Below, in pieces: positions 3,766 through 64,000 of a stretch of DNA of 64,000 nt. The DNA comes from Escherichia coli 042 (GTDB lineage Bacteria; Pseudomonadota; Gammaproteobacteria; Enterobacterales; Enterobacteriaceae): assembly GCF_000027125.1 (NCBI RefSeq), contig NC_017626.1; one strand, written 5' to 3'. Within the stretch, counting starts at the first letter, position 1. Each line of letters begins with the position of its first letter. The notes beneath the pieces were generated by a model. It was not told the DNA's origin, ran no database searches, and saw only the letters and a list, made by a program, of their open reading frames with translations. The position numbers were made by a program, and so were the translations under genes.

Positions 3766-3853
3766 TGGCGGTGAGGGGGGGATTCGAACCCCCGATACGT
3801 TGCCGTATACACACTTTCCAGGCGTGCTCCTTCAGCCACTCGGACACCTCACC
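3766..3853 (-). tRNA. serX: tRNA-Ser (anticodon GGA)
   Basis: Minus-strand 88-nt sequence GGTGAGGTGTCCGAGTGGCTGAAGG...GGTTCGAATCCCCCCCTCACCGCCA, with long variable arm and CCA end. Confidence 0.9.
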
Positions 3854-4047
3854 AAATTGTCGTTCCTGTCTTGCTGGAACGGGCGCTAATTTAGGGAAAT
3901 CATGACCTGAGGTCAACAAACTTTTTTAAAAAATCGCGCGTTTATTCAAACTTCAATCAATATGCAGTTTTAATAAGCGAAATCTGCTTTTTTTGCCACC
4001 GACCACGGATTTGTTATGCTGGTGGTCTTTGTAGATCATAACGATAA

Positions 4048-5025
<978 letters not shown>

Positions 5026-5079
5026 TAAAGCATCAGGTTTCCTGCTATCCTTGGCGGGAATTGAATACAGGAGAGAGTT

Positions 5080-5817
5080 ATGTATCCCGTCGACCTTCAT
5101 ATGCATACCGTTGCCAGCACGCATGCATATAGCACATTGAGTGATTACATTGCCCAGGCCAAACAAAAGGGCATTAAACTTTTTGCGATCACCGATCATG
5201 GCCCGGATATGGAAGATGCGCCGCATCACTGGCACTTCATTAACATGCGTATCTGGCCGCGAGTGGTTGATGGGGTTGGGATCCTGCGCGGCATCGAAGC
5301 TAACATTAAAAATGTTGACGGTGAAATTGACTGCAGTGGCAAAATGTTTGATTCGCTGGATCTGATTATTGCCGGTTTTCATGAGCCGGTGTTTGCGCCG
5401 CATGACAAAGCGACTAATACGCAAGCGATGATCGCCACTATCGCCAGCGGCAATGTGCATATAATAAGCCATCCCGGAAATCCGAAATATGAAATAGATG
5501 TTAAAGCCGTTGCTGAAGCAGCTGCGAAACATCAGGTGGCGCTGGAAATCAATAATTCCTCATTTTTACACTCACGTAAGGGCAGTGAAGACAACTGTCG
5601 TGCGGTAGCCGCAGCGGTACGTGACGCTGGAGGTTGGGTGGCATTAGGTTCGGATTCTCACACCGCGTTTACCATGGGTGAATTTGAAGAGTGTCTTAAA
5701 ATCCTCGACGCGGTAGATTTTCCGCCAGAGCGCATTTTGAATGTTTCTCCGCGCCGCTTACTGAACTTCCTTGAATCTCGCGGTATGGCACCGATTGCGG
5801 AATTTGCAGACCTTTAA
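5080..5817 (+). CDS. ycdX: PHP-family phosphatase YcdX
   Basis: 245 aa, HMHT metal-binding motif typical of the PHP domain. Confidence 0.88.
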
Positions 5818-41733: not shown

Positions 41734-42432
41734 ATGCAAAAAAACGCTGCGCATACTTATGCCATTTCCAGCTTGTTGGTGCTTTCACTAACCGGCTGCG
41801 CCTGGATACCCTCCACGCCGCTGGTACAGGGGGCGACTAGTGCACAACCGGTTCCCGGTCCGACGCCCGTCGCCAACGGTTCTATTTTCCAGTCTGCTCA
41901 GCCGATTAACTATGGCTATCAACCGCTGTTTGAAGATCGTCGACCACGCAATATTGGCGATACGCTGACCATCGTGTTGCAGGAGAACGTCAGCGCCAGC
42001 AAAAGCTCCTCTGCGAATGCCAGCCGTGACGGTAAAACTAATTTTGGCTTTGATACTGTGCCGCGCTATTTGCAGGGGCTGTTTGGTAACGCTCGTGCCG
42101 ATGTCGAAGCCTCCGGTGGTAACACGTTCAACGGAAAAGGCGGGGCCAATGCCAGCAATACCTTTAGCGGCACGTTGACGGTGACGGTTGACCAGGTACT
42201 GGCCAACGGCAACCTGCATGTGGTGGGTGAAAAACAGATCGCCATTAATCAGGGTACCGAATTTATTCGCTTCTCTGGCGTGGTTAATCCTCGCACCATC
42301 AGCGGCAGCAATACCGTACCGTCTACTCAGGTGGCGGATGCACGTATTGAATACGTAGGCAATGGCTACATTAACGAAGCGCAAAATATGGGCTGGTTGC
42401 AGCGTTTCTTCCTTAACCTGTCGCCAATGTAA
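41734..42432 (+). CDS. flgH: Flagellar L-ring lipoprotein FlgH
   Basis: Start at [22 protein letters not shown] (232 aa). Confidence 0.92.
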
Positions 42433-46202: not shown

Positions 46203-47156
46203 ATGCGTTTCAGTACCCAGATGATGTACCAGCAAAACATGCGCGGCATCACCAACTCTCAGGCAGAATGGATGAAGTACGGCGAACAGATGTCGACGGG
46301 TAAGCGAGTCGTTAACCCTTCAGATGATCCCATTGCTGCATCACAAGCTGTTGTTCTCTCCCAGGCACAGGCGCAAAACAGCCAGTACACGCTGGCGCGT
46401 ACTTTCGCCACTCAAAAAGTGTCACTGGAAGAGAGTGTACTTAGCCAGGTCACCACCGCTATCCAGAATGCTCAGGAAAAAATTGTCTACGCCAGCAATG
46501 GCACCTTGAGTGACGATGACCGGGCCTCGCTGGCTACGGATATTCAGGGGCTTCGTGACCAGTTGCTGAATCTGGCGAACACCACTGACGGTAACGGGCG
46601 CTACATTTTTGCCGGTTATAAAACAGAATCCGCACCGTTTAGCGAGGCGGATGGCAAATACGAAGGCGGAGCAGAAAGTATTAAACAACAGGTCGATGCT
46701 TCGCGTTCGATGGTGATAGGGCACACGGGTGACAAAATTTTCGACAGTATTACCAGCAACGCGGTAGCGGAACCAGACGGTAGCGCTTCTGAAACCAATC
46801 TTTTTGCCATGCTGGATAGCGCCATCGCAGCCCTGAAAACGCCGGTCGCGGATAGCGAAGCGGATAAAGAAACCGCCGCTGCGGCGTTAGATAAAACCAA
46901 CCGCGGACTGAAAAACTCGCTGAACAATGTCCTGACCGTTCGCGCGGAATTAGGCACGCAGCTGAACGAACTGGAGTCGCTGGATTCATTAGGTAGCGAT
47001 CGCGCATTAGGGCAAACGCAGCAGATGAGCGATCTGGTTGATGTGGACTGGAATGCAACTATTTCATCTTACATCATGCAGCAAACGGCATTGCAGGCAT
47101 CGTATAAAGCATTTACCGATATGCAGGGATTGTCGCTCTTCCAGCTCAACAAATAA
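46203..47156 (+). CDS. flgL: Hook-filament junction protein 3 FlgL
   Basis: 317 aa. Confidence 0.93.
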   Translation: MRFSTQMMYQQNMRGITNSQAEWMKYGEQMSTGKRVVNPSDDPIAASQAVVLSQAQAQNSQYTLARTFATQKVSLEESVLSQVTTAIQNAQEKIVYASNGTLSDDDRASLATDIQGLRDQLLNLANTTDGNGRYIFAGYKTESAPFSEADGKYEGGAESIKQQVDASRSMVIGHTGDKIFDSITSNAVAEPDGSASETNLFAMLDSAIAALKTPVADSEADKETAAAALDKTNRGLKNSLNNVLTVRAELGTQLNELESLDSLGSDRALGQTQQMSDLVDVDWNATISSYIMQQTALQASYKAFTDMQGLSLFQLNK

Positions 47157-47249
47157 GCTCGCTTTAAAACATATCATGAAACTGGGTATGTTTTCTCTGC
47201 CTGCTCTGGGATCGCCGGGGCGGGCATTTTTTGCATGAGACATAACGAA

Positions 47250-48034
<785 letters not shown>

Positions 48035-48120
48035 AAATATATCCTTCGGCTTTGCATGGATGATAATTATACAGCGCATGTAACGCTAATGTCATTACAA
48101 CAAAGATGCTACCCTGAAAT

Positions 48121-48150
48121 AAAAAAGCCCTGGCAGTTACCAGGGCTTGA
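48121..48150 (-). terminator. Rho-independent terminator downstream of rne
   Basis: AGCCCTGGCAGTTACCAGGGCT hairpin followed by a T-run on the minus strand. Confidence 0.7.
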
Positions 48151-48166
48151 TTGCTTGAGCTAATTA

Positions 48167-51100
48167 TTACTCAACAGGTTGCGGACGCGCAGGAGCGGCA
48201 GAGGCATGATGCGTTGCCGTATGACCACCTGCGGCACCTTTGCCTTCGAAGGCAAAAGTAGGGCGCTGCCAGTCACTGTGACGCGGTGCCTCCGGAACAT
48301 ATTCCGGTGCCGGAGCGCGCGTCATTGGCGCGGTAGCGTGGTTATGCTCAACGGTGACCTCAGGTTTAACCGCGGCTACCGTTTCAACTTCTGCTGCGAC
48401 TTCAGCGACGACAGGCGCGGCAGGTTGAGCAACAACTTCAGGTTCAGCAACCACAACCTCAGCAGTTTCGGCAACTTCTTCAATATCTGCCGTCTCTTCC
48501 TGCGGTTCAACCACCGGTTCTGCGTGTTCTGCAACTTCCTGGGCTACGGCAACATCAGTCTCGGTAATCACCTGCGGCTGTTCAGTTACCGCGGCGGCAA
48601 TCACTTCAGGATGCGTCGTTTCAACCACTTCCGGTTGCGGTTCGGCAACCTGAACGGGGGCTTCTACAACTTCAGCCACTTCTTCAACAACCGGTGCGCT
48701 AACAACAGGTTCGACAGCGGCGGCGACAGGGACCTCAGTCACCATCGGCTGCACTTGTACTTCTTCCTGTTCGCGCTGCTCTTCGACCTGTACATCTTGC
48801 GGACGTACAATTGGATAGCGGATCCAGACTTTGCCAGAGGCCAGTTCCGGAGATGCGCACGCTACGGTCAACGGCATTGGCGATTGGGTTGGATAACGCT
48901 CGTCACGATAGCGACGACGACGCTGACCACTCACGCGCAGGTGACGAGGCGAGCGGCGAGAACGACGCGGCATGCCACCGTTGTCACGGTTATCGGCATT
49001 GTTCTCTTCTTGCTGTTCTGGTGCAGCTTGCGCTACGACTGGCAGCGGGACTTTCACCAGTTCTGTGCGTGGAGCTGGCGCTTCCTGAACAATTGGTTCG
49101 GCAGCGACAGTTTCTTCAACCACCGGTGCGACTACCGCTTCTTCGGCTACGCTTTGCTCGTAACGCACTTTCTGATTGAGCTGACGCTGTTTACGACGCG
49201 GCTGAACCGGACGTACACGTTCTTCCTGTTCGGTTTCCTGAACAGATTGCTCTTCAACATTCAGCGCCTTCGCTTCTTGTTGCGCCTGACGTTTATCATC
49301 GTTACGGCGGCGGCTACGTTCACGACGCGGCGCTTGCTGCTCGTCGGTGGTACGCGCTTTTTCCGTTACCTCAGCCTGCTGACGGCTCTCACGCGTCTCG
49401 GCAGTCTGCTGCTGTGCCTGGCGACGATTACGACGGTTTTCTTCGCGATTATCGCTGCCTTCTGTACGTTCACTACGGGTATCGCGGCGCTCATTACGGT
49501 CACGGCGGTTGTTCTGACGAGGCTTGCGACGATCCTGTTGACGTTCCGGTTTCGCTTCTGCTTTCGGTGCTGGTTGCTCGGTCGGTTTGGTTTCTTCACC
49601 ACCGCTGAACAGCGCTTTCAGTGCGCCGAAGAAGCGGCTTAACAGCCCAGGTTGTGCAGGAGCTGCTGGTGTTGCCGGTGCAGCTTTAGGTGCTGGGGCT
49701 ACGACAGGCGCGGCAGGTTCAGCTGGGGTTGGTGCTGGCGGCACATCCGGCATGGCAAAGGTAGCCAGCGCAGGTTGTTCCGGACGCTTACGTTCAGCGA
49801 ACTCTTCTTCAGACGGCAGCGCCATCGCTTCTTCATGCAGCTTCGGCAGCATGTAGCTTAAGGTTGGGGTTTCTTCCCCTTTGCGCACGCGCAGCACATG
49901 GTAGTGCGGGGTTTCCATCTGATCGTTTGGCACAATCACACAGCGCACGCCGTCCTGACGAGTTTCAATCGCATTCACTGCAGAACGTTTTTCATTCAGC
50001 AGATAAGAAGCGATTGGCACAGGAACAATGGCGTGAACTTCCTGGGTGTTCTCTTTCAGCGCTTCTTCTTCGATCAGACGCAGAATAGAGAGCGACAGCG
50101 ATTCGTTGTCACGCACGGTACCGGTACCGGAGCAGCGCGGGCAGACGTGATGGCTGGATTCACCCAATGATGGGCTCAGGCGCTGACGGGACATTTCCAG
50201 CAGGCCAAAGCGAGAAATATGGCTGATTTGAATACGCGCACGGTCCTGACGCACCGCTTCACGCAGACGGTTTTCTACCGCACGCTGGTGGCGTACTGGC
50301 GTCATGTCGATGAAGTCGATAACAATCAGGCCGCCGAGGTCACGCAGGCGCAGCTGACGAGCAATCTCATCGGCAGCTTCGAGGTTGGTGTTAAACGCGG
50401 TTTCTTCGATATCGCCGCCGCGGGTCGCGCGTGCGGAGTTGATGTCGATGGCCGTTAACGCTTCGGTGCTGTCGATAACAATGGAACCACCAGACGGCAG
50501 ACGAACTTCACGCTGGAAGGCGGACTCAATCTGTGACTCGATCTGGTAGTGGCTGAACAGCGGGATCTCGCCGGTGTACAGTTTGATTTTGCTGCTGAAA
50601 TCCGGGCGACCTAATGCAGCGATATGCTGACGTGCCAGTTCGAGCACTTTCGGGTTATCGATAAGGATTTCGCCGATGTCCTGACGTAAGTAATCGCGGA
50701 ATGCGCGAACGATGACGTTGCTCTCCTGATGAATCAGGAACGGAGCCGGGCGGCTTTCAGCGGCTTTTTTGATGGCTTCCCAGTGTTTCAGACGGAAGCT
50801 TAAATCCCATTGCAGCGCCTCAGCAGATTTGCCGACGCCAGCGGTGCGCACGATTAGCCCCATGCCTTCCGGCAGTTCAAGGCTTGCCAGTGCTTCTTTT
50901 AATTCGGTACGGTCGTCGCCTTCGATACGACGAGAAATGCCACCCGCGCGCGGGTTGTTCGGCATCAGAACCAGATAGCTACCCGCCAGACTGATAAAGG
51001 TGGTTAATGCCGCGCCTTTGTTGCCGCGCTCTTCTTTATCGATCTGAACAATGACTTCCTGACCTTCACGCAACACATCTTTAATGTTGGGACGACCATG

Positions 51101-51352
51101 TGCACTGTAGTTAGCAGGGAAATATTCGCGGGCAATTTCTTTTAGTGGGAGGAAACCGTGACGTTCAGCGCCGTAATCAACAAAAGCAGCTTCCAGACTC
51201 GGTTCAATGCGGGTGATTTTACCTTTGTAGATGTTTGCCTTTTTCTGCTCGTGCCCTGGACTTTCGATATCCAGGTCATACAGACGCTGCCCATCTACAA
51301 GGGCAACGCGCAACTCTTCCTGCTGAGTTGCGTTGATTAACATTCTTTTCAT
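48167..51352 (-). CDS. rne: Ribonuclease E
   Basis: 1061 aa; conserved N-terminal catalytic half plus Arg/Pro/Glu-rich low-complexity C-terminal scaffold. Confidence 0.95.
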
Positions 51353-51715
51353 CGTAACTTACTCATTATTCTTACATTGACGACTAAGCTGCGGGCAAAG
51401 TAACGCCTTTCCGGGTGTGAACCGATGGCCTCGTGTCTAGTCGCGTCGCCAACCTCACGGTTATCGTTAGCTCAAAGAGGCGCAGAGTGTCGGTTGCCCG
51501 TTTTTCATGCGGAAAAACAGCGCAATTATCAAAGAAACAGACTGGGTATTACTCTCCAGAAATATTTCCATCTACCGGTAAGGACTGCAACCCGCAGCCC
51601 GCTAACTGCCTGAAAGATCAATACGTCTTACGCCATTGCTGCGTGGATGATCGGTCGGGCAAAATGGGTTATTCCGTAAAATTTCTTGTTTTAACAAGGA
51701 TGGACACGGAAACGG
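51353..51715 (-). promoter_or_regulatory. rne 5' leader (autoregulatory long 5' UTR)
   Basis: Long non-coding region upstream of rne. Established knowledge: a ~360-nt structured leader mediates RNase E autoregulation. Boundaries approximate. Confidence 0.5.
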
Positions 51716-51924
51716 CCTCATTATTCCACTGCAAGCCTTGTTATAGCAAGATGACTTTTACCATTTATCACCCGCTTACTCACAGTTTTTTCACTTCTTG
51801 CTGGTGATTGGTTTAATAACCATCAATAAAGTGATCACGTAGTGAAGTAATAAGGTGCAAAACTAAATATAAGCATAGAAAAATGAGTGGCGCGAATCCT
51901 GTTGGCTAATTAGAATCGCCCACC

Positions 51925-52884
51925 ATGAAAACAGAGACTCCATCCGTAAAAATTGTTGCTATCACCGCTGACGAAGCGGGGCAACGTATCGATAACTTTT
52001 TGCGTACCCAATTGAAAGGCGTACCAAAAAGTATGATTTACCGTATTTTGCGTAAAGGCGAAGTGCGGGTGAACAAAAAACGTATTAAGCCTGAATATAA
52101 ACTCGAAGCGGGTGATGAGGTGCGTATCCCACCGGTTCGCGTTGCTGAACGGGAAGAAGAGGCGGTTTCGCCACATCTGCAAAAGGTGGCAGCGCTGGCG
52201 GACGTCATCTTATATGAAGATGACCATATCCTGGTGCTGAATAAACCTTCCGGTACGGCGGTACATGGCGGCAGTGGTTTAAGCTTCGGCGTTATCGAAG
52301 GTTTGCGGGCGTTGCGCCCGGAAGCGCGGTTCCTTGAACTGGTTCATCGTCTCGACCGGGACACTTCAGGTGTGTTGCTGGTAGCGAAAAAACGCTCGGC
52401 GTTGCGTTCTCTGCATGAGCAATTACGTGAAAAAGGGATGCAAAAAGATTACCTGGTGCTGGTGCGCGGTCAGTGGCAGTCGCATGTGAAGAGCGTTCAA
52501 GCGCCGTTGCTGAAAAATATTCTGCAAAGCGGCGAACGTATCGTGCGTGTGAGTCAGGAAGGCAAACCGTCGGAAACACGCTTTAAAGTGGAAGAACGCT
52601 ATGCTTTTGCCACCCTGGTGCGTTGTAGCCCGGTAACAGGGCGTACTCATCAGATCCGTGTTCATACACAGTATGCGGGTCATCCGATTGCCTTTGACGA
52701 TCGCTACGGTGACCGTGAATTTGACAGACAGCTCACTGAAGCCGGCACGGGATTAAATCGTCTGTTCCTGCACGCCGCAGCGTTGAAGTTTACCCATCCG
52801 GGGACCGGTGAGGTGATGCGTATCGAAGCGCCGATGGATGATGGTTTGAAGCGTTGTTTGCAAAAACTGCGTAACGCGCGCTAA
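51925..52884 (+). CDS. rluC: 23S rRNA pseudouridine synthase RluC
   Basis: 319 aa, S4 domain plus RluA-family catalytic motif (HRLDRDTSG). Confidence 0.92.
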   Translation: MKTETPSVKIVAITADEAGQRIDNFLRTQLKGVPKSMIYRILRKGEVRVNKKRIKPEYKLEAGDEVRIPPVRVAEREEEAVSPHLQKVAALADVILYEDDHILVLNKPSGTAVHGGSGLSFGVIEGLRALRPEARFLELVHRLDRDTSGVLLVAKKRSALRSLHEQLREKGMQKDYLVLVRGQWQSHVKSVQAPLLKNILQSGERIVRVSQEGKPSETRFKVEERYAFATLVRCSPVTGRTHQIRVHTQYAGHPIAFDDRYGDREFDRQLTEAGTGLNRLFLHAAALKFTHPGTGEVMRIEAPMDDGLKRCLQKLRNAR

Positions 52885-57179: not shown

Positions 57180-58133
57180 ATGTATACGAAGATTATTGGT
57201 ACTGGCAGCTATCTGCCCGAACAAGTGCGGACAAACGCCGATTTGGAAAAAATGGTGGACACCTCTGACGAGTGGATTGTCACTCGTACCGGTATCCGCG
57301 AACGCCACATTGCCGCGCCAAACGAAACCGTTTCAACCATGGGCTTTGAAGCGGCGACACGCGCAATTGAGATGGCGGGCATTGAGAAAGACCAGATTGG
57401 CCTGATCGTTGTGGCAACGACTTCTGCTACGCACGCTTTCCCGAGCGCAGCTTGTCAGATTCAAAGCATGCTGGGCATTAAAGGTTGCCCGGCATTTGAC
57501 GTTGCAGCAGCCTGCGCAGGTTTCACCTATGCATTAAGCGTAGCCGATCAATACGTGAAATCTGGGGCGGTGAAGTATGCTCTGGTCGTCGGTTCCGATG
57601 TACTGGCGCGCACCTGCGATCCAACCGATCGTGGGACTATTATTATTTTTGGCGATGGCGCGGGCGCTGCGGTGCTGGCTGCCTCTGAAGAACCGGGAAT
57701 CATCTCCACCCATCTGCATGCCGACGGTAGCTATGGTGAGTTGCTGACGCTGCCTAATGCTGACCGTGTGAATCCAGAGAATTCAATTCATCTGACGATG
57801 GCGGGCAACGAAGTCTTCAAGGTTGCGGTAACAGAACTGGCGCACATCGTAGATGAGACGCTGACGGCGAATAATCTTGACCGTTCTCAACTGGACTGGC
57901 TGGTTCCGCATCAGGCTAACCTGCGTATTATCAGTGCAACAGCGAAAAAACTCGGCATGTCGATGGACAATGTCGTGGTGACGCTGGATCGCCACGGTAA
58001 TACCTCTGCGGCCTCTGTCCCGTGCGCGCTGGATGAAGCTGTACGCGACGGGCGCATTAAGCCGGGGCAGTTGGTTCTGCTTGAAGCCTTTGGCGGTGGA
58101 TTCACCTGGGGCTCCGCGCTGGTTCGTTTCTAG
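57180..58133 (+). CDS. fabH: 3-oxoacyl-ACP synthase III FabH
   Basis: 317 aa. Confidence 0.95.
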
Positions 58134-58148
58134 GATAAGGATTAAAAC

Positions 58149-59078
58149 ATGACGCAATTTGCATTTGTGTTCCCTGGACAGGGTTCTCAAACCGTTGGAA
58201 TGCTGGCTGATATGGCGGCGAGCTATCCAATTGTCGAAGAAACGTTTGCTGAAGCTTCTGCGGCGCTGGGCTACGACCTGTGGGCGCTGACCCAGCAGGG
58301 GCCAGCTGAAGAACTGAATAAAACCTGGCAAACCCAGCCAGCGCTGTTGACTGCATCTGTTGCGCTGTATCGCGTATGGCAGCAGCAGGGCGGTAAAGCA
58401 CCGGCAATGATGGCCGGTCACAGCTTGGGGGAATACTCCGCGCTGGTTTGCGCTGGTGTGATTGATTTCGCTGATGCGGTGCGTCTGGTTGAGATGCGCG
58501 GTAAGTTTATGCAGGAAGCCGTACCGGAAGGAACGGGTGCTATGGCGGCAATCATCGGTCTGGATGATGCGTCTATTGCGAAAGCGTGTGAAGAAGCTGC
58601 AGAAGGTCAGGTCGTTTCTCCGGTAAACTTTAACTCTCCGGGACAGGTGGTTATTGCCGGTCATAAAGAAGCAGTTGAGCGTGCTGGCGTTGCCTGTAAA
58701 GCTGCGGGCGCAAAACGCGCTCTGCCGTTACCAGTGAGCGTACCGTCTCACTGTGCGCTGATGAAACCAGCAGCCGACAAACTGGCAGTAGAATTAGCGA
58801 AAATCACCTTTAACGCATCAACAGTTCCTGTTGTGAATAACGTTGATGTGAAATGCGAAACCAATGGTGATGCCATCCGTGACGCACTGGTACGTCAGTT
58901 GTATAACCCGGTTCAGTGGACGAAGTCTGTTGAATACATGGCAGCGCAAGGCGTAGAACATCTCTATGAAGTCGGCCCGGGCAAAGTGCTTACTGGCCTG
59001 ACGAAACGCATTGTCGACACCCTGACCGCCTCGGCGCTGAACGAACCTTCAGCGATGGCAGCGGCGCTCGAGCTTTAA
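58149..59078 (+). CDS. fabD: Malonyl-CoA:ACP transacylase FabD
   Basis: 309 aa, GHSLGE active site. Confidence 0.95.
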   Translation: MTQFAFVFPGQGSQTVGMLADMAASYPIVEETFAEASAALGYDLWALTQQGPAEELNKTWQTQPALLTASVALYRVWQQQGGKAPAMMAGHSLGEYSALVCAGVIDFADAVRLVEMRGKFMQEAVPEGTGAMAAIIGLDDASIAKACEEAAEGQVVSPVNFNSPGQVVIAGHKEAVERAGVACKAAGAKRALPLPVSVPSHCALMKPAADKLAVELAKITFNASTVPVVNNVDVKCETNGDAIRDALVRQLYNPVQWTKSVEYMAAQGVEHLYEVGPGKVLTGLTKRIVDTLTASALNEPSAMAAALEL

Positions 59079-62533: not shown

Positions 62534-63556
62534 ATGAAAAAAGTGTTATTGATTATCTTGTTATTGCTGGTGGTACTGGGTATCGCCGCTGGTGTGGGCG
62601 TCTGGAAGGTTCGCCATCTTGCCGACAGCAAATTGCTTATCAAAGAAGAGACGATATTTACCCTGAAGCCAGGGACCGGACGTCTGGCGCTTGGTGAACA
62701 GCTTTATGCCGATAAGATCATCAATCGCCCACGGGTTTTTCAATGGTTGCTGCGTATCGAACCGGATCTTTCTCACTTTAAAGCCGGGACTTACCGCTTT
62801 ACACCGCAGATGACCGTGCGCGAGATGCTGAAATTGCTGGAAAGCGGTAAAGAAGCACAGTTCCCTCTGCGACTGGTAGAAGGGATGCGTCTGAGCGATT
62901 ACCTCAAGCAATTGCGTGAGGCTCCGTATATCAAGCACACGCTGAGCGACGATAAGTACGCCACCGTAGCGCAGGCACTTGAACTGGAAAACCCAGAGTG
63001 GATTGAAGGTTGGTTCTGGCCAGACACCTGGATGTATACCGCCAATACCACCGATGTCGCGTTACTCAAGCGAGCGCACAAGAAAATGGTGAAAGCGGTC
63101 GATAGCGCCTGGGAAGGGCGTGCGGACGGTCTGCCCTATAAAGATAAAAACCAGCTGATGACGATGGCATCAATTATCGAAAAAGAAACCGCCGTTGCCA
63201 GTGAACGCGATCAGGTTGCCTCGGTATTTATCAACCGGTTACGCATTGGTATGCGCCTGCAGACCGACCCGACCGTGATTTACGGGATGGGAGAGCGTTA
63301 TAATGGCAAACTTTCTCGTGCAGACCTGGAAACGCCGACAGCGTATAACACCTATACCATTACCGGTTTGCCGCCAGGTGCAATAGCTACGCCGGGGGCG
63401 GATTCGCTGAAGGCTGCTGCGCATCCGGCAAAAACGCCGTATCTCTATTTTGTGGCCGATGGTAAAGGTGGTCACACGTTTAATACCAATCTTGCCAGTC
63501 ATAACAAGTCTGTGCAGGATTATCTGAAAGTGCTTAAGGAAAAAAATGCGCAGTAA
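62534..63556 (+). CDS. mltG: Endolytic murein transglycosylase MltG (YceG)
   Basis: 340 aa with N-terminal TM anchor. Confidence 0.9.
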
Positions 63557-64000
63557 GTATATCGTCATTGAGGGGCTGGAAGGCGCAGGCAAAACTACCG
63601 CGCGTAATGTGGTGGTTGAGACGCTCGAGCAACTGGGTATCCGCGACATGGTTTTCACTCGGGAACCTGGCGGTACGCAACTTGCCGAAAAGTTAAGAAG
63701 CCTGGTGCTGGATATCAAATCGGTAGGCGATGAAGTCATTACCGATAAAGCCGAAGTTCTGATGTTTTATGCCGCGCGCGTTCAACTGGTAGAAACGGTC
63801 ATCAAACCTGCGCTGGCTAACGGCACCTGGGTGATTGGCGATCGCCACGATCTCTCCACTCAGGCGTATCAGGGCGGCGGACGTGGTATTGACCAACATA
63901 TGCTGGCAACATTGCGTGATGCTGTTCTCGGGGATTTTCGCCCCGACTTAACGCTCTATCTCGATGTTACCCCGGAAGTTGGCTTAAAACGTGCGCGTGC
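63546..64000 (+). CDS. tmk: Thymidylate kinase, 3'-truncated by window edge
   Basis: P-loop GLEGAGKTT; start overlaps the mltG stop by 11 bp. Confidence 0.9.

Follow-up and report, generated by a model that had tools for sequence, protein, structure and literature searches.

The long open reading frame opposite the RNase E scaffold region of Escherichia coli 042 is very probably a by-product of rne composition and codon usage

The window analysed here, a 64-kb stretch of the Escherichia coli 042 chromosome, carries on its minus strand the gene rne (48167..51352, with the stop codon at 48167-48169), which encodes ribonuclease E (RNase E), a protein of 1061 residues. The assignment rests on the order of the Pfam domains in the translation, in which an S1 domain (PF00575, residues 36-117, E = 9.7e-13) is followed by the RNase E/G catalytic domain (PF10150 RNase_E_G, residues 121-391, E = 1.1e-98) and by the small thioredoxin-like domain (PF20833 RNase_E_G_Thio, residues 403-488, E = 1.8e-31), all three above the Pfam cut-off; on a long non-catalytic C-terminal half with microdomains for enolase and PNPase; and on the genomic context. 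Downstream of the 3' end of rne are flgK and flgL, upstream of the gene is an ORF for an rluC-like pseudouridine synthase, and this arrangement matches other E. coli genomes. The 5' UTR contains the autoregulatory element rne5 (51377..51713, minus strand; Rfam RF00040, 259.8 bits, E = 1.6e-81), and 19 nt downstream of the rne stop there is a hairpin of 10 pairs followed by a T run, which resembles an intrinsic terminator (48125..48148, minus strand). Of 5426 complete E. coli genomes, 5425 gave a match to rne in a DNA search; among the matches listed, the entries from complete E. coli genomes are labelled 'rne: ribonuclease E'. The identity to rne of essentially all complete E. coli genomes is 97-99.5% at the DNA level, and the other alleles that we examined differ from that of 042 by allelic substitutions only, at a few per cent of the sites in the tail.

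The C-terminal scaffold half of RNase E comprises residues 530-1061 (48170..49765, minus strand), and is characterized below by amino-acid composition, GC content at the first codon position, codon log-odds and dN/dS. With respect to the scaffold of E. coli K-12 Rne (residues about 530-1061), the gene, the length of 1061 residues and the domain set are the same, as are the enolase site (823-850) and the PNPase site (1021-1061), both of which are matched by solved peptide structures. The PNPase-binding microdomain (residues 1021-1061; 48170..48292, minus strand) is recognized by PF12111 PNPase_C (residues 1022-1058, E = 1.9e-17) and by the peptides of PDB entries 3gcm_D and 9qh0_D, which align with residues 1004-1061; the peptides 5ohg_C, 5ohg_J and 3h8a_E align with residues 813-850 (positions 284-321 of the 530-1061 fragment used as query), which include the end of the Arg-rich AR2 region and the enolase-binding microdomain (48803..48916, minus strand). 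Farther upstream, the motif [16 protein letters not shown] in the translation marks the amphipathic helix 'segment A' (residues about 565-582; 49607..49660, minus strand), which, from established knowledge of RNase E, we take to be the membrane anchor of the enzyme.

A reading of this DNA made from the sequence alone had described the 3' half of rne as low-complexity and rich in Arg, Pro, Glu, Ala and Val, and the composition of residues 530-1061 agrees with that description (A 15.0, E 14.1, V 12.6, P 11.3, R 10.2, Q 8.5%); the string it quoted, [14 protein letters not shown], is present in the translation. Its mention of EVAE/PVVE repeats holds only as a statement on composition, as Tandem Repeats Finder detects no tandem array in that region, and its sole match in the interval is a two-copy 12-mer at 49528..49551. 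In the interval proposed, 48167-49900, the first three bases are the rne stop codon, and the scaffold half begins at about residue 530, i.e., at 49765 rather than at 49900. Two residues are particularly scarce in the tail, Leu (2.1% versus 10.2% in the N-terminal half) and Ser (3.2% versus 6.6%). At the DNA level, the GC fraction is 0.55-0.61 over 48150-49950, compared to 0.46-0.53 toward flgL and over the initial ~400 bases of rne with its leader; it likewise reaches 0.55-0.59 in the part of rne that encodes the catalytic domain (50100-51000). The AT skew of the plus strand falls to -0.41 over the tail, and the GC content at the first codon position of the tail is 0.80, versus 0.58 in the other genes of the window.

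Opposite this tail, on the plus strand, is the 487-aa ORF that the sequence-only reading had singled out (48179..49642; TTG start, first ATG at 48206, open from stop to stop over 48161..49640). It is the longest overlapping ORF in the window, and it is in phase 0 with rne (the 'frame -1'), so that its codons are aligned with, and antisense to, rne codons 571-1058. Because of this register, a stop can occur in it only opposite the rne codons TTA, CTA or TCA. Codons of this type are found in rne at positions 5, 70, 116 and so on up to 498 and 571, and there are none after 571: the last 490 codons (572-1061) include 9 Leu and 17 Ser codons, none of which is TTA, CTA or TCA. The limits of the ORF are thus set by the sense codons, and its stop is the complement of the TTA codon of Leu571, a residue of segment A. 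Of the 11 other alleles examined, 9 have no stop-generating codon at position 571. The same register recurs elsewhere in the window: of the eight overlapping ORFs that follow this one in length, four (293, 216, 198 and 166 aa) share the codon alignment and the antisense orientation.

The reading also mentioned several other ORFs of 60–120 aa, and the plus strand does contain ORFs of 122, 64, 89 and 69 aa. The first two are in the second frame, at 48811..49179 and 49414..49608 (the latter in an open stretch from 49177 to 49606), and the third is in the third frame, at 49587..49856. As evaluated by codon shuffling, the lengths of the longest ORFs in these two non-aligned frames are ordinary (P = 0.23 for the 122-aa ORF and P = 0.36 for the 89-aa ORF), and the second frame does not hold an unusual count of ORFs of 60 aa or more (P = 0.56); neither the 122-aa nor the 89-aa ORF matches a Pfam family. 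All three are best regarded as chance ORFs. The 69-aa ORF (49652..49861, plus strand) instead belongs to the codon-aligned frame and is flanked by the antisense stops of rne codons 571 and 498; in most E. coli alleles it is joined to the long ORF, which then reaches 560 aa.

The length of the 487-aa ORF was evaluated against a null model in which the RNase E protein is held fixed, synonymous codons are resampled, and the longest antisense run is scored. The median of the longest run in these samples is 249-291 codons; runs of at least 200 codons appear in 90-98% of them, and runs of at least 490 codons in 2.3-10% (P = 0.02-0.10). Shuffling of rne codons 485-1061 gives a similar picture, with a median run of 323 and P = 0.048 for a run of at least 487. 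At the average rate of 0.027 stop-generating codons per codon, on the other hand, an open run of 490 codons has P = 1.4e-6, and therefore the composition accounts for about four orders of magnitude. When the protein-fixed null is applied to all 52 genes of the window, rne ranks fourth (P = 0.031), and 5 of the 52 genes have P values of 0.05 or less; thus, the antisense run of rne is not exceptional in length for a gene of this window. The 560-aa form, which is the commoner one and occurs in a K-12-like strain, yields P = 0.004-0.015 under the resampling null; we do not consider these values significant, because the locus was chosen post hoc from among thousands of genes. Overall, the length of the ORF is far above what is expected opposite a gene of average composition, yet it is within what is predicted from the RNase E protein sequence, such that the amino-acid and codon usage of the sense gene account for it.

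Comparison with related species indicates that the antisense frame is not conserved. In E. albertii, whose tail is 90% identical, there are three antisense stops within codons 572-1061, two of which arise from changes that are synonymous in rne (L725 CTC>CTA, L828 TTG>TTA). The tail contains 2 such stops in Citrobacter, 2-6 in three Enterobacter genomes, 5 in Superficieibacter and 10 in Klebsiella; hence, the frame is broken in all seven close relatives examined, often through rne-silent changes. In these seven relatives the stop-generating codons observed in the tail are at least as many as expected from the codon usage of the N-terminal domain, and over the entire set of 80 species the observed numbers lie both above and below that expectation. 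In the same 80 species the longest antisense run follows genomic GC: it is 41-130 codons long where GC is <0.42, and in Pseudomonas it spans the whole gene (1030-1099 codons). Within E. coli, we compared 12 alleles, drawn from outside the most divergent lineages (ten genomes at 90-95% identity): the ORF varies in length from 464 to 560 aa, and ends opposite rne codon 498, 554, 571 or 594.

Polymorphism within the species identifies rne as the frame under selection. The variable sites of the tail are distributed as 34/12/79 over rne codon positions 1/2/3, and dN/dS is 0.19 in the rne frame versus 0.74 in the antisense frame. Among rne-silent changes there is no difference between those that are nonsynonymous and those that are synonymous in the antisense frame (SN/SS ratio 0.69, P = 0.36). 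Polymorphisms that are nonsynonymous in rne less often alter the antisense product as well than leave it unchanged (NN/NS ratio 0.31, P = 2e-4; 0.45, P = 0.03, with transitions only). We considered the antisense dN/dS of 0.74 and this NN/NS ratio as possible signs of selection on the antisense product and rejected both, as they reduce to a comparison of rne position 1 with rne position 2. In particular, the NN/NS ratio is confounded because the contrast is essentially one of rne position 2 versus position 1, and changes at position 2 are more radical in any protein. As a control, flgL, which has 9 antisense stops and therefore no such ORF, gives an NN/NS ratio of 0.58 that leans in the same direction as that of rne, but is not significant and, with too few changes, has little power. 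The codon-usage comparison of the two strands that the sequence-only reading had proposed favours the rne frame: the codon log-odds are 0.387 bits per codon for the rne tail versus 0.015 for the 487-aa ORF, while the average is 0.274 ± 0.113 for the genes of the window and -0.175 ± 0.187 for their antisense frames. The ORF would encode a product whose composition mirrors that of the rne tail (R 13.8, F 13.8, L 13.1, C 3.9, E 1.0, K 0.2, P 0.4%), and neither this composition nor the codon usage is gene-like.

The 487-aa ORF has no Pfam family, and a search of 5.8 billion proteins returned five relatives; four of these are close, and each is a translation of this locus. We traced three of the database entries, and in each of the source assemblies rne is disrupted, whether by indels, an N-gap or a fold-back join; the product that was mis-called is either a hypothetical protein of 343-416 aa or a fusion with RNase E. 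No RefSeq feature other than rne lies under the interval among the 80 matches listed, and there is no plus-strand CDS in the 11 genomic regions inspected.

These results can be related to what is known of antisense ORFs. Long antisense ORFs in frame -1, or shadow ORFs, have been explained chiefly by the codons that the annotated gene uses (Mir et al. 2012, PMC3454372, and, cited therein, Merino et al. 1994 and Silke 1997). The rne ORF shares with them the codon-aligned antisense register, the restriction of stops to positions opposite TTA, CTA and TCA, the dependence of length on the amino-acid and codon usage of the sense gene, and the recurrence of the register in several other long ORFs of the window. 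It differs in being unusually long for a genome of 51% GC (487 aa, rising to 560 aa in the majority of E. coli alleles), because the sense protein is of low complexity and nearly devoid of Leu and Ser. A different comparison is with the antisense genes proposed in E. coli O157:H7, namely pop versus ompA (PMC7103648), ano (PMC5960689) and three further ones (PMC9927249), for which support from RNA-seq, ribosome profiling, promoter assays and phenotypes is reported. Like them, the rne ORF is wholly embedded antisense in an annotated E. coli gene; unlike for them, support of that kind did not emerge for it here. It also fails the tests of conservation and codon usage, and its length is several times that of each of these genes.

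This comparison bears on one alternative, according to which the ORF of 487-560 aa is a young overlapping gene restricted to E. coli, analogous to pop/ompA, asa and ano as proposed for EHEC, and translated at a low level from an antisense transcript starting in the rne 3' region. It would then lie within the essential rne and be longer than any embedded antisense gene so far reported from an enterobacterium. All 12 E. coli alleles do leave the frame open over rne codons 595-1058, although this is expected by descent alone within a species whose members differ by 2-3%, and the end of the ORF shifts by up to 96 codons among the alleles; already in the sister species E. albertii the frame is broken silently with respect to rne, as it is broken in every other close enterobacterial relative examined. 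In length the ORF ranks among the upper values under synonymous resampling (P = 0.004-0.10), but rne does not stand out among the genes of the window; the low NN/NS ratio is confounded by rne codon position, and the clean, rne-silent contrast gives a null result. An AGGAG motif precedes the in-frame ATG at 48206 by 10 nt, but a consensus scan finds no promoter-like site before the start of the ORF, whose codon usage and composition are those of non-genic sequence. Antisense overlapping genes of E. coli have been surveyed by ribosome profiling, with the mother genes listed by product name, and in the text searched none of these is called ribonuclease E; the supplements of the E. coli preprint on such genes contain no entry for rne, ribonuclease E, b1084, Z1722 or ECs1462. 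Altogether, we regard a young gene at this locus as very improbable.

Antisense transcription is widespread in E. coli, and one may ask whether the plus strand gives rise to a functional non-coding RNA that regulates rne, in which case the ORFs would be irrelevant. The scan of the plus strand for promoters and terminators finds nothing above the expectation from shuffled sequences: there is a single weak internal promoter-like site (48783-48811, 9 of 12 positions matched), and the count of such sites, 2 versus a shuffle mean of 1.0 ± 1.2, is at chance frequency. Rfam recognizes only rne5 in the region 47000-52500, there is no pattern of conservation beyond that of the rne frame, and the known autoregulation of rne works via the 5' UTR, which is present here. 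We regard a regulatory antisense RNA, too, as very improbable.

Register, null models, non-conservation, codon usage, homology and annotation all support what the sequence-only reading had proposed, that the plus-strand ORFs are artefacts of composition and not a new gene, and we are highly confident that they are by-products of the composition of the rne tail and of its codon usage. The interval is simply the 3' half of rne, coding for a degradosome-scaffold tail of intrinsically low complexity. Like other well-adapted E. coli genes, rne shuns the rare codons TTA, CTA and TCA; there is no antisense stop from Leu571 to the end of rne because the tail is nearly without Leu and Ser and these rare codons are avoided. 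The shorter ORFs in the other two plus-strand frames are those that arise ordinarily by chance at such a composition. As the long ORF is a by-product of the make-up of the tail, the original observation was correct and ordinary. We infer that the plus strand is not expressed; it would encode nothing, and its sole practical effect would be that gene callers take the shadow ORF when rne is disrupted in an assembly of poor quality.

The caution on automated annotation that accompanied the original observation is justified by the entries deposited from assemblies of this kind, in which the mis-call follows from the splitting of rne by sequencing indels, by a scaffold gap in the low-complexity region or by a fold-back join. 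The relevance of the finding is that of an annotation note only. The locus also serves as a worked example that length alone is no evidence of an overlapping gene, and that the right null is one in which the sense protein is held fixed.

The gene at 48167..51352 (- strand, an ORF of 1061 aa) is E. coli rne, because the Pfam domains of RNase E (S1, RNase_E_G, RNase_E_G_Thio and the C-terminal, PNPase-binding PNPase_C) score far over their curated cut-offs, the 1,734-base interval of its 3' half (48167-49900) is matched in 5,425 of 5,426 complete E. coli genomes (90-99.5% identity, one copy per genome) with 'rne: ribonuclease E' as the sole feature annotated beneath it among the 80 matches listed, the rne5 5' UTR element of Rfam lies directly upstream (51377-51713, - strand), and a terminator-like hairpin lies directly beyond the stop (48125-48148, - strand). 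The interval is the well-known degradosome scaffold of RNase E, and the tail bears the known functional microdomains: RNase E peptides solved in complexes with enolase and PNPase align to residues 813-850 and 1004-1061. In some E. coli genomes (matches H34 and H39) the query of 1,734 bases aligns to 1,722, which suggests that the RNase E tail is polymorphic in length, by 12 bases and in frame.

Residues 530-1061 consist of 15.0% Ala, 14.1% Glu, 12.6% Val, 11.3% Pro, 10.2% Arg and 8.5% Gln; Leu (2.1%) and Ser (3.2%) are scarce there, versus 10.2% and 6.6% in the catalytic half. The GC fraction is 0.55-0.61 across 48150-49950, higher than the 0.46-0.53 seen towards flgL and at the start of rne (its first ~400 bases and the leader); it likewise rises to 0.55-0.59 in the catalytic-domain part of the gene (50100-51000). 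Within 48150-49950 the AT skew of the + strand falls to -0.41, and in the tail the first position of rne codons has a GC fraction of 0.80. The sequence-only reading of this region as compositionally extreme therefore holds, and the 14-residue peptide quoted in it is found in the rne translation; its 'EVAE/PVVE repeats' stand as a description of composition, but not as tandem DNA repeats.

Two features flanking rne can be recorded here. Between flgL and rne there is a two-gene toxin-antitoxin module (47250..48079, - strand), consisting of a GNAT acetyltransferase toxin (47250..47759, - strand; best solved relative 7ak7_A, E = 3.7e-76, with TacT 5fvj also matched) and a TacA-like DUF1778 antitoxin (47741..48079, - strand; PF08681 match). 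This accessory insert measures some 815 bp and is present in only 1 of the 11 other E. coli strains opened (locus L082); in a K-12-like strain without it the flgL-rne spacing is 195 bp. At the other end of the gene, a 124-aa ORF antisense to the rne5 element (51433..51807, + strand) is probably another spurious ORF; at the equivalent place of an NCBI assembly (contig L094, 3546..3866) a 106-aa gene without a Pfam family is called. In K-12 an ORF at this place has been annotated as yceQ.

The + strand ORFs reported opposite the tail all exist: one of 487 aa (48179..49642) and smaller ones of 122, 64, 89 and 69 aa. The codons of the 487-aa ORF line up with those of rne on the opposite strand (phase 0, codon-aligned antisense), and in this register a stop (TAA, TAG or TGA) is possible only opposite an rne TTA, CTA or TCA codon. 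There are 13 such codons in rne, 12 of them within the first 498 codons and the last at Leu571 (TTA), in a 13-residue membrane-anchor motif; codons 572-1061 have none, as their 9 Leu codons are all CTG, CTC or TTG and their 17 Ser codons AGC, AGT, TCT or TCG. Stop to stop, the open stretch spans 48161..49640 (492 codons), while the remaining two + frames of the same region contain 44 and 55 stops, with a longest open stretch of 158 codons.

If TTA, CTA and TCA occurred at their mean rate in the other 51 window genes, which is 0.027 per codon, a stop-free run of 490 codons would have P = 1.4e-6. The proper null is one in which the RNase E protein is fixed and synonymous codons are redrawn from the usage of the window genes, of whole rne or of its N-terminal part. 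Under this null the median longest antisense run is 249-291 codons, runs of at least 200 occur in 90-98% of samples, and runs of at least 490 in 2.3% (window genes), 10.4% (whole rne) and 6.1% (N-terminal part). If the codons that rne has at 485-1061 are shuffled instead, the median becomes 323 and P = 0.048; under such a shuffle neither of the remaining + frames holds an exceptional ORF (P = 0.36 and 0.23). When the resampling test is run on all window genes, rne ranks 4th of 52, with 5 at or below 0.05. The null probability is 0.004-0.015 for a 560-aa allele, as found in a K-12-like strain. The length of the ORF derives mostly from amino-acid composition and, for part of the remainder, from gene-wide avoidance of the three rare codons; what is left is a mild upper-tail outcome, picked post hoc.

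The codon-aligned register is also that of four of the eight next longest overlapping window ORFs (293, 216, 198 and 166 aa, at 57783..58664, 4882..5532, 41788..42384 and 63239..63739, all - strand), each opposite a longer ORF. In 5 of the 52 window genes the aligned antisense run exceeds 95% of the gene's own synonymous resamplings, a mild general excess.

We have compared rne across 80 species. The E. albertii tail, at 90% identity, has three antisense stops within 572-1061, two of them synonymous in rne (L725 CTC>CTA, L828 TTG>TTA) and one from P594S; the longest open antisense run in that species is 242 codons. The tail has 2 antisense stops in Citrobacter werkmanii, 2-6 in three Enterobacter genomes, 5 in Superficieibacter and 10 in Klebsiella, many of them at serines encoded by TCT or TCG in E. 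coli. Stop-generating tail codons are at or above the expectation from N-terminal usage in seven close relatives (E. albertii to Klebsiella), and lie both above and below it across all 80 species. The length of the longest open run simply follows GC: AT-rich genomes have 41-130 codons, and in Pseudomonas the run covers all of rne (1030-1099 codons). The rne genes of Pseudomonas and other high-GC bacteria (L035, L038, L040, L041, L045 and L076; GC ~0.60-0.66) have zero aligned antisense stops, and their shadow ORFs have twice the length of the E. coli one. Within E. coli, codons 595-1058 are open in all 12 alleles, which is expected at 2-3% divergence; the ORF stop lies opposite rne codon 498, 554, 571 or 594, yielding 560, 504, 487 or 464 aa.

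That the ORF might instead be a young, E. coli-specific overlapping gene is very improbable. In 11 E. coli alleles the variable sites of the tail fall 34/12/79 at rne codon positions 1/2/3, and dN/dS of the rne frame is 0.19, that of the antisense frame 0.74. Among rne-silent changes, antisense-nonsynonymous and -synonymous rates are alike (ratio 0.69, P = 0.36; 0.87 for transitions only). Some weak counter-evidence in favor of a young gene comes from the rne-nonsynonymous changes, with a ratio of 0.31 (P = 2e-4). The 'antisense-synonymous' changes of this register, however, are those at rne position 1 and 'antisense-nonsynonymous' ones mostly those at position 2, so that the ratio reflects second-position changes being more radical in RNase E itself; the flgL control (nine antisense stops) gives 0.58, in the same direction, though its 17 changes are too few to be decisive. 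The codon usage of the two strands, proposed earlier as a check, also sets them apart: read in the rne frame, the tail scores a log-odds of 0.387 per codon, and the ORF scores 0.015, as compared to 0.274 +/- 0.113 for window genes and -0.175 +/- 0.187 for their aligned antisense frames. The ORF product (Phe 13.8%, Arg 13.8%, Leu 13.1%, Cys 3.9%, Glu 1.0%, Pro 0.4%, Lys 0.2%) has the composition of a complement image of the Glu/Ala/Val/Arg/Pro-rich tail, and a Pfam search assigns it to no family. A promoter scan finds no sigma-70-like site upstream of the ORF and one weak internal + strand site, at shuffle frequency. An AGGAG 10 nt ahead of an in-frame ATG at 48206 coincides with codons that encode the PNPase-binding segment and may be there by chance. 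Embedded antisense genes of EHEC, BL21 and other strains have been surveyed by ribosome profiling; the survey lists mother genes by product, and its available portion contains no 'ribonuclease E'.

Five relatives of the ORF product were found among the 5.8 billion proteins searched. Four are close (87-98% identity) and translate the same E. coli locus, as contig tracing confirmed for three; the fifth, 40% identical, has no origin on record. All three traced entries come from defective assemblies. P0001 derives from an NCBI assembly (L081) with 11 indels in rne (L081 3962..7142). The neighbouring flgJ-type Rod-binding/Glucosaminidase and pseudouridine synthase genes are also called there as split fragments. 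P0002, a cluster of 268 sequences, comes from a metagenome scaffold (L093) in which a 100-N gap (3815..3914) lies in the low-complexity part of rne, its ends duplicated (rne bases 2774-2828). Assembly is prone to fail in this EVAE/PVVE part of rne. P0004 (L094 4001..6282; on record in 4 samples), named 'ribonuclease E, partial', fuses RNase E residues 1-576 to the antisense translation; the contig end carries rne bases 1-1728 followed by inverted bases 2218-1652, joined in a short shared stretch that reads RFFG on both strands, and the chimera looks like a fold-back assembly artefact. In the curated annotation of RefSeq, none of the 11 complete genomes opened has a + strand CDS opposite the tail.

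Overall, the nulls, the broken frame in relatives and the non-genic codon usage bear out the earlier view of the opposite-strand ORFs as artefacts. The long ORF antisense to E. coli rne, unlike pop, asa and ano, overlapping genes proposed in EHEC, fails the tests for such candidate status. It is a frame -1 shadow ORF of the textbook kind, a class put down chiefly to codon usage (Merino 1994 and Silke 1997, as cited in PMC3454372), and is exceptionally long because the sense protein is Leu/Ser-poor and of low complexity. The caution for automated annotation is real, as the ORF has been deposited as a protein from defective rne assemblies.
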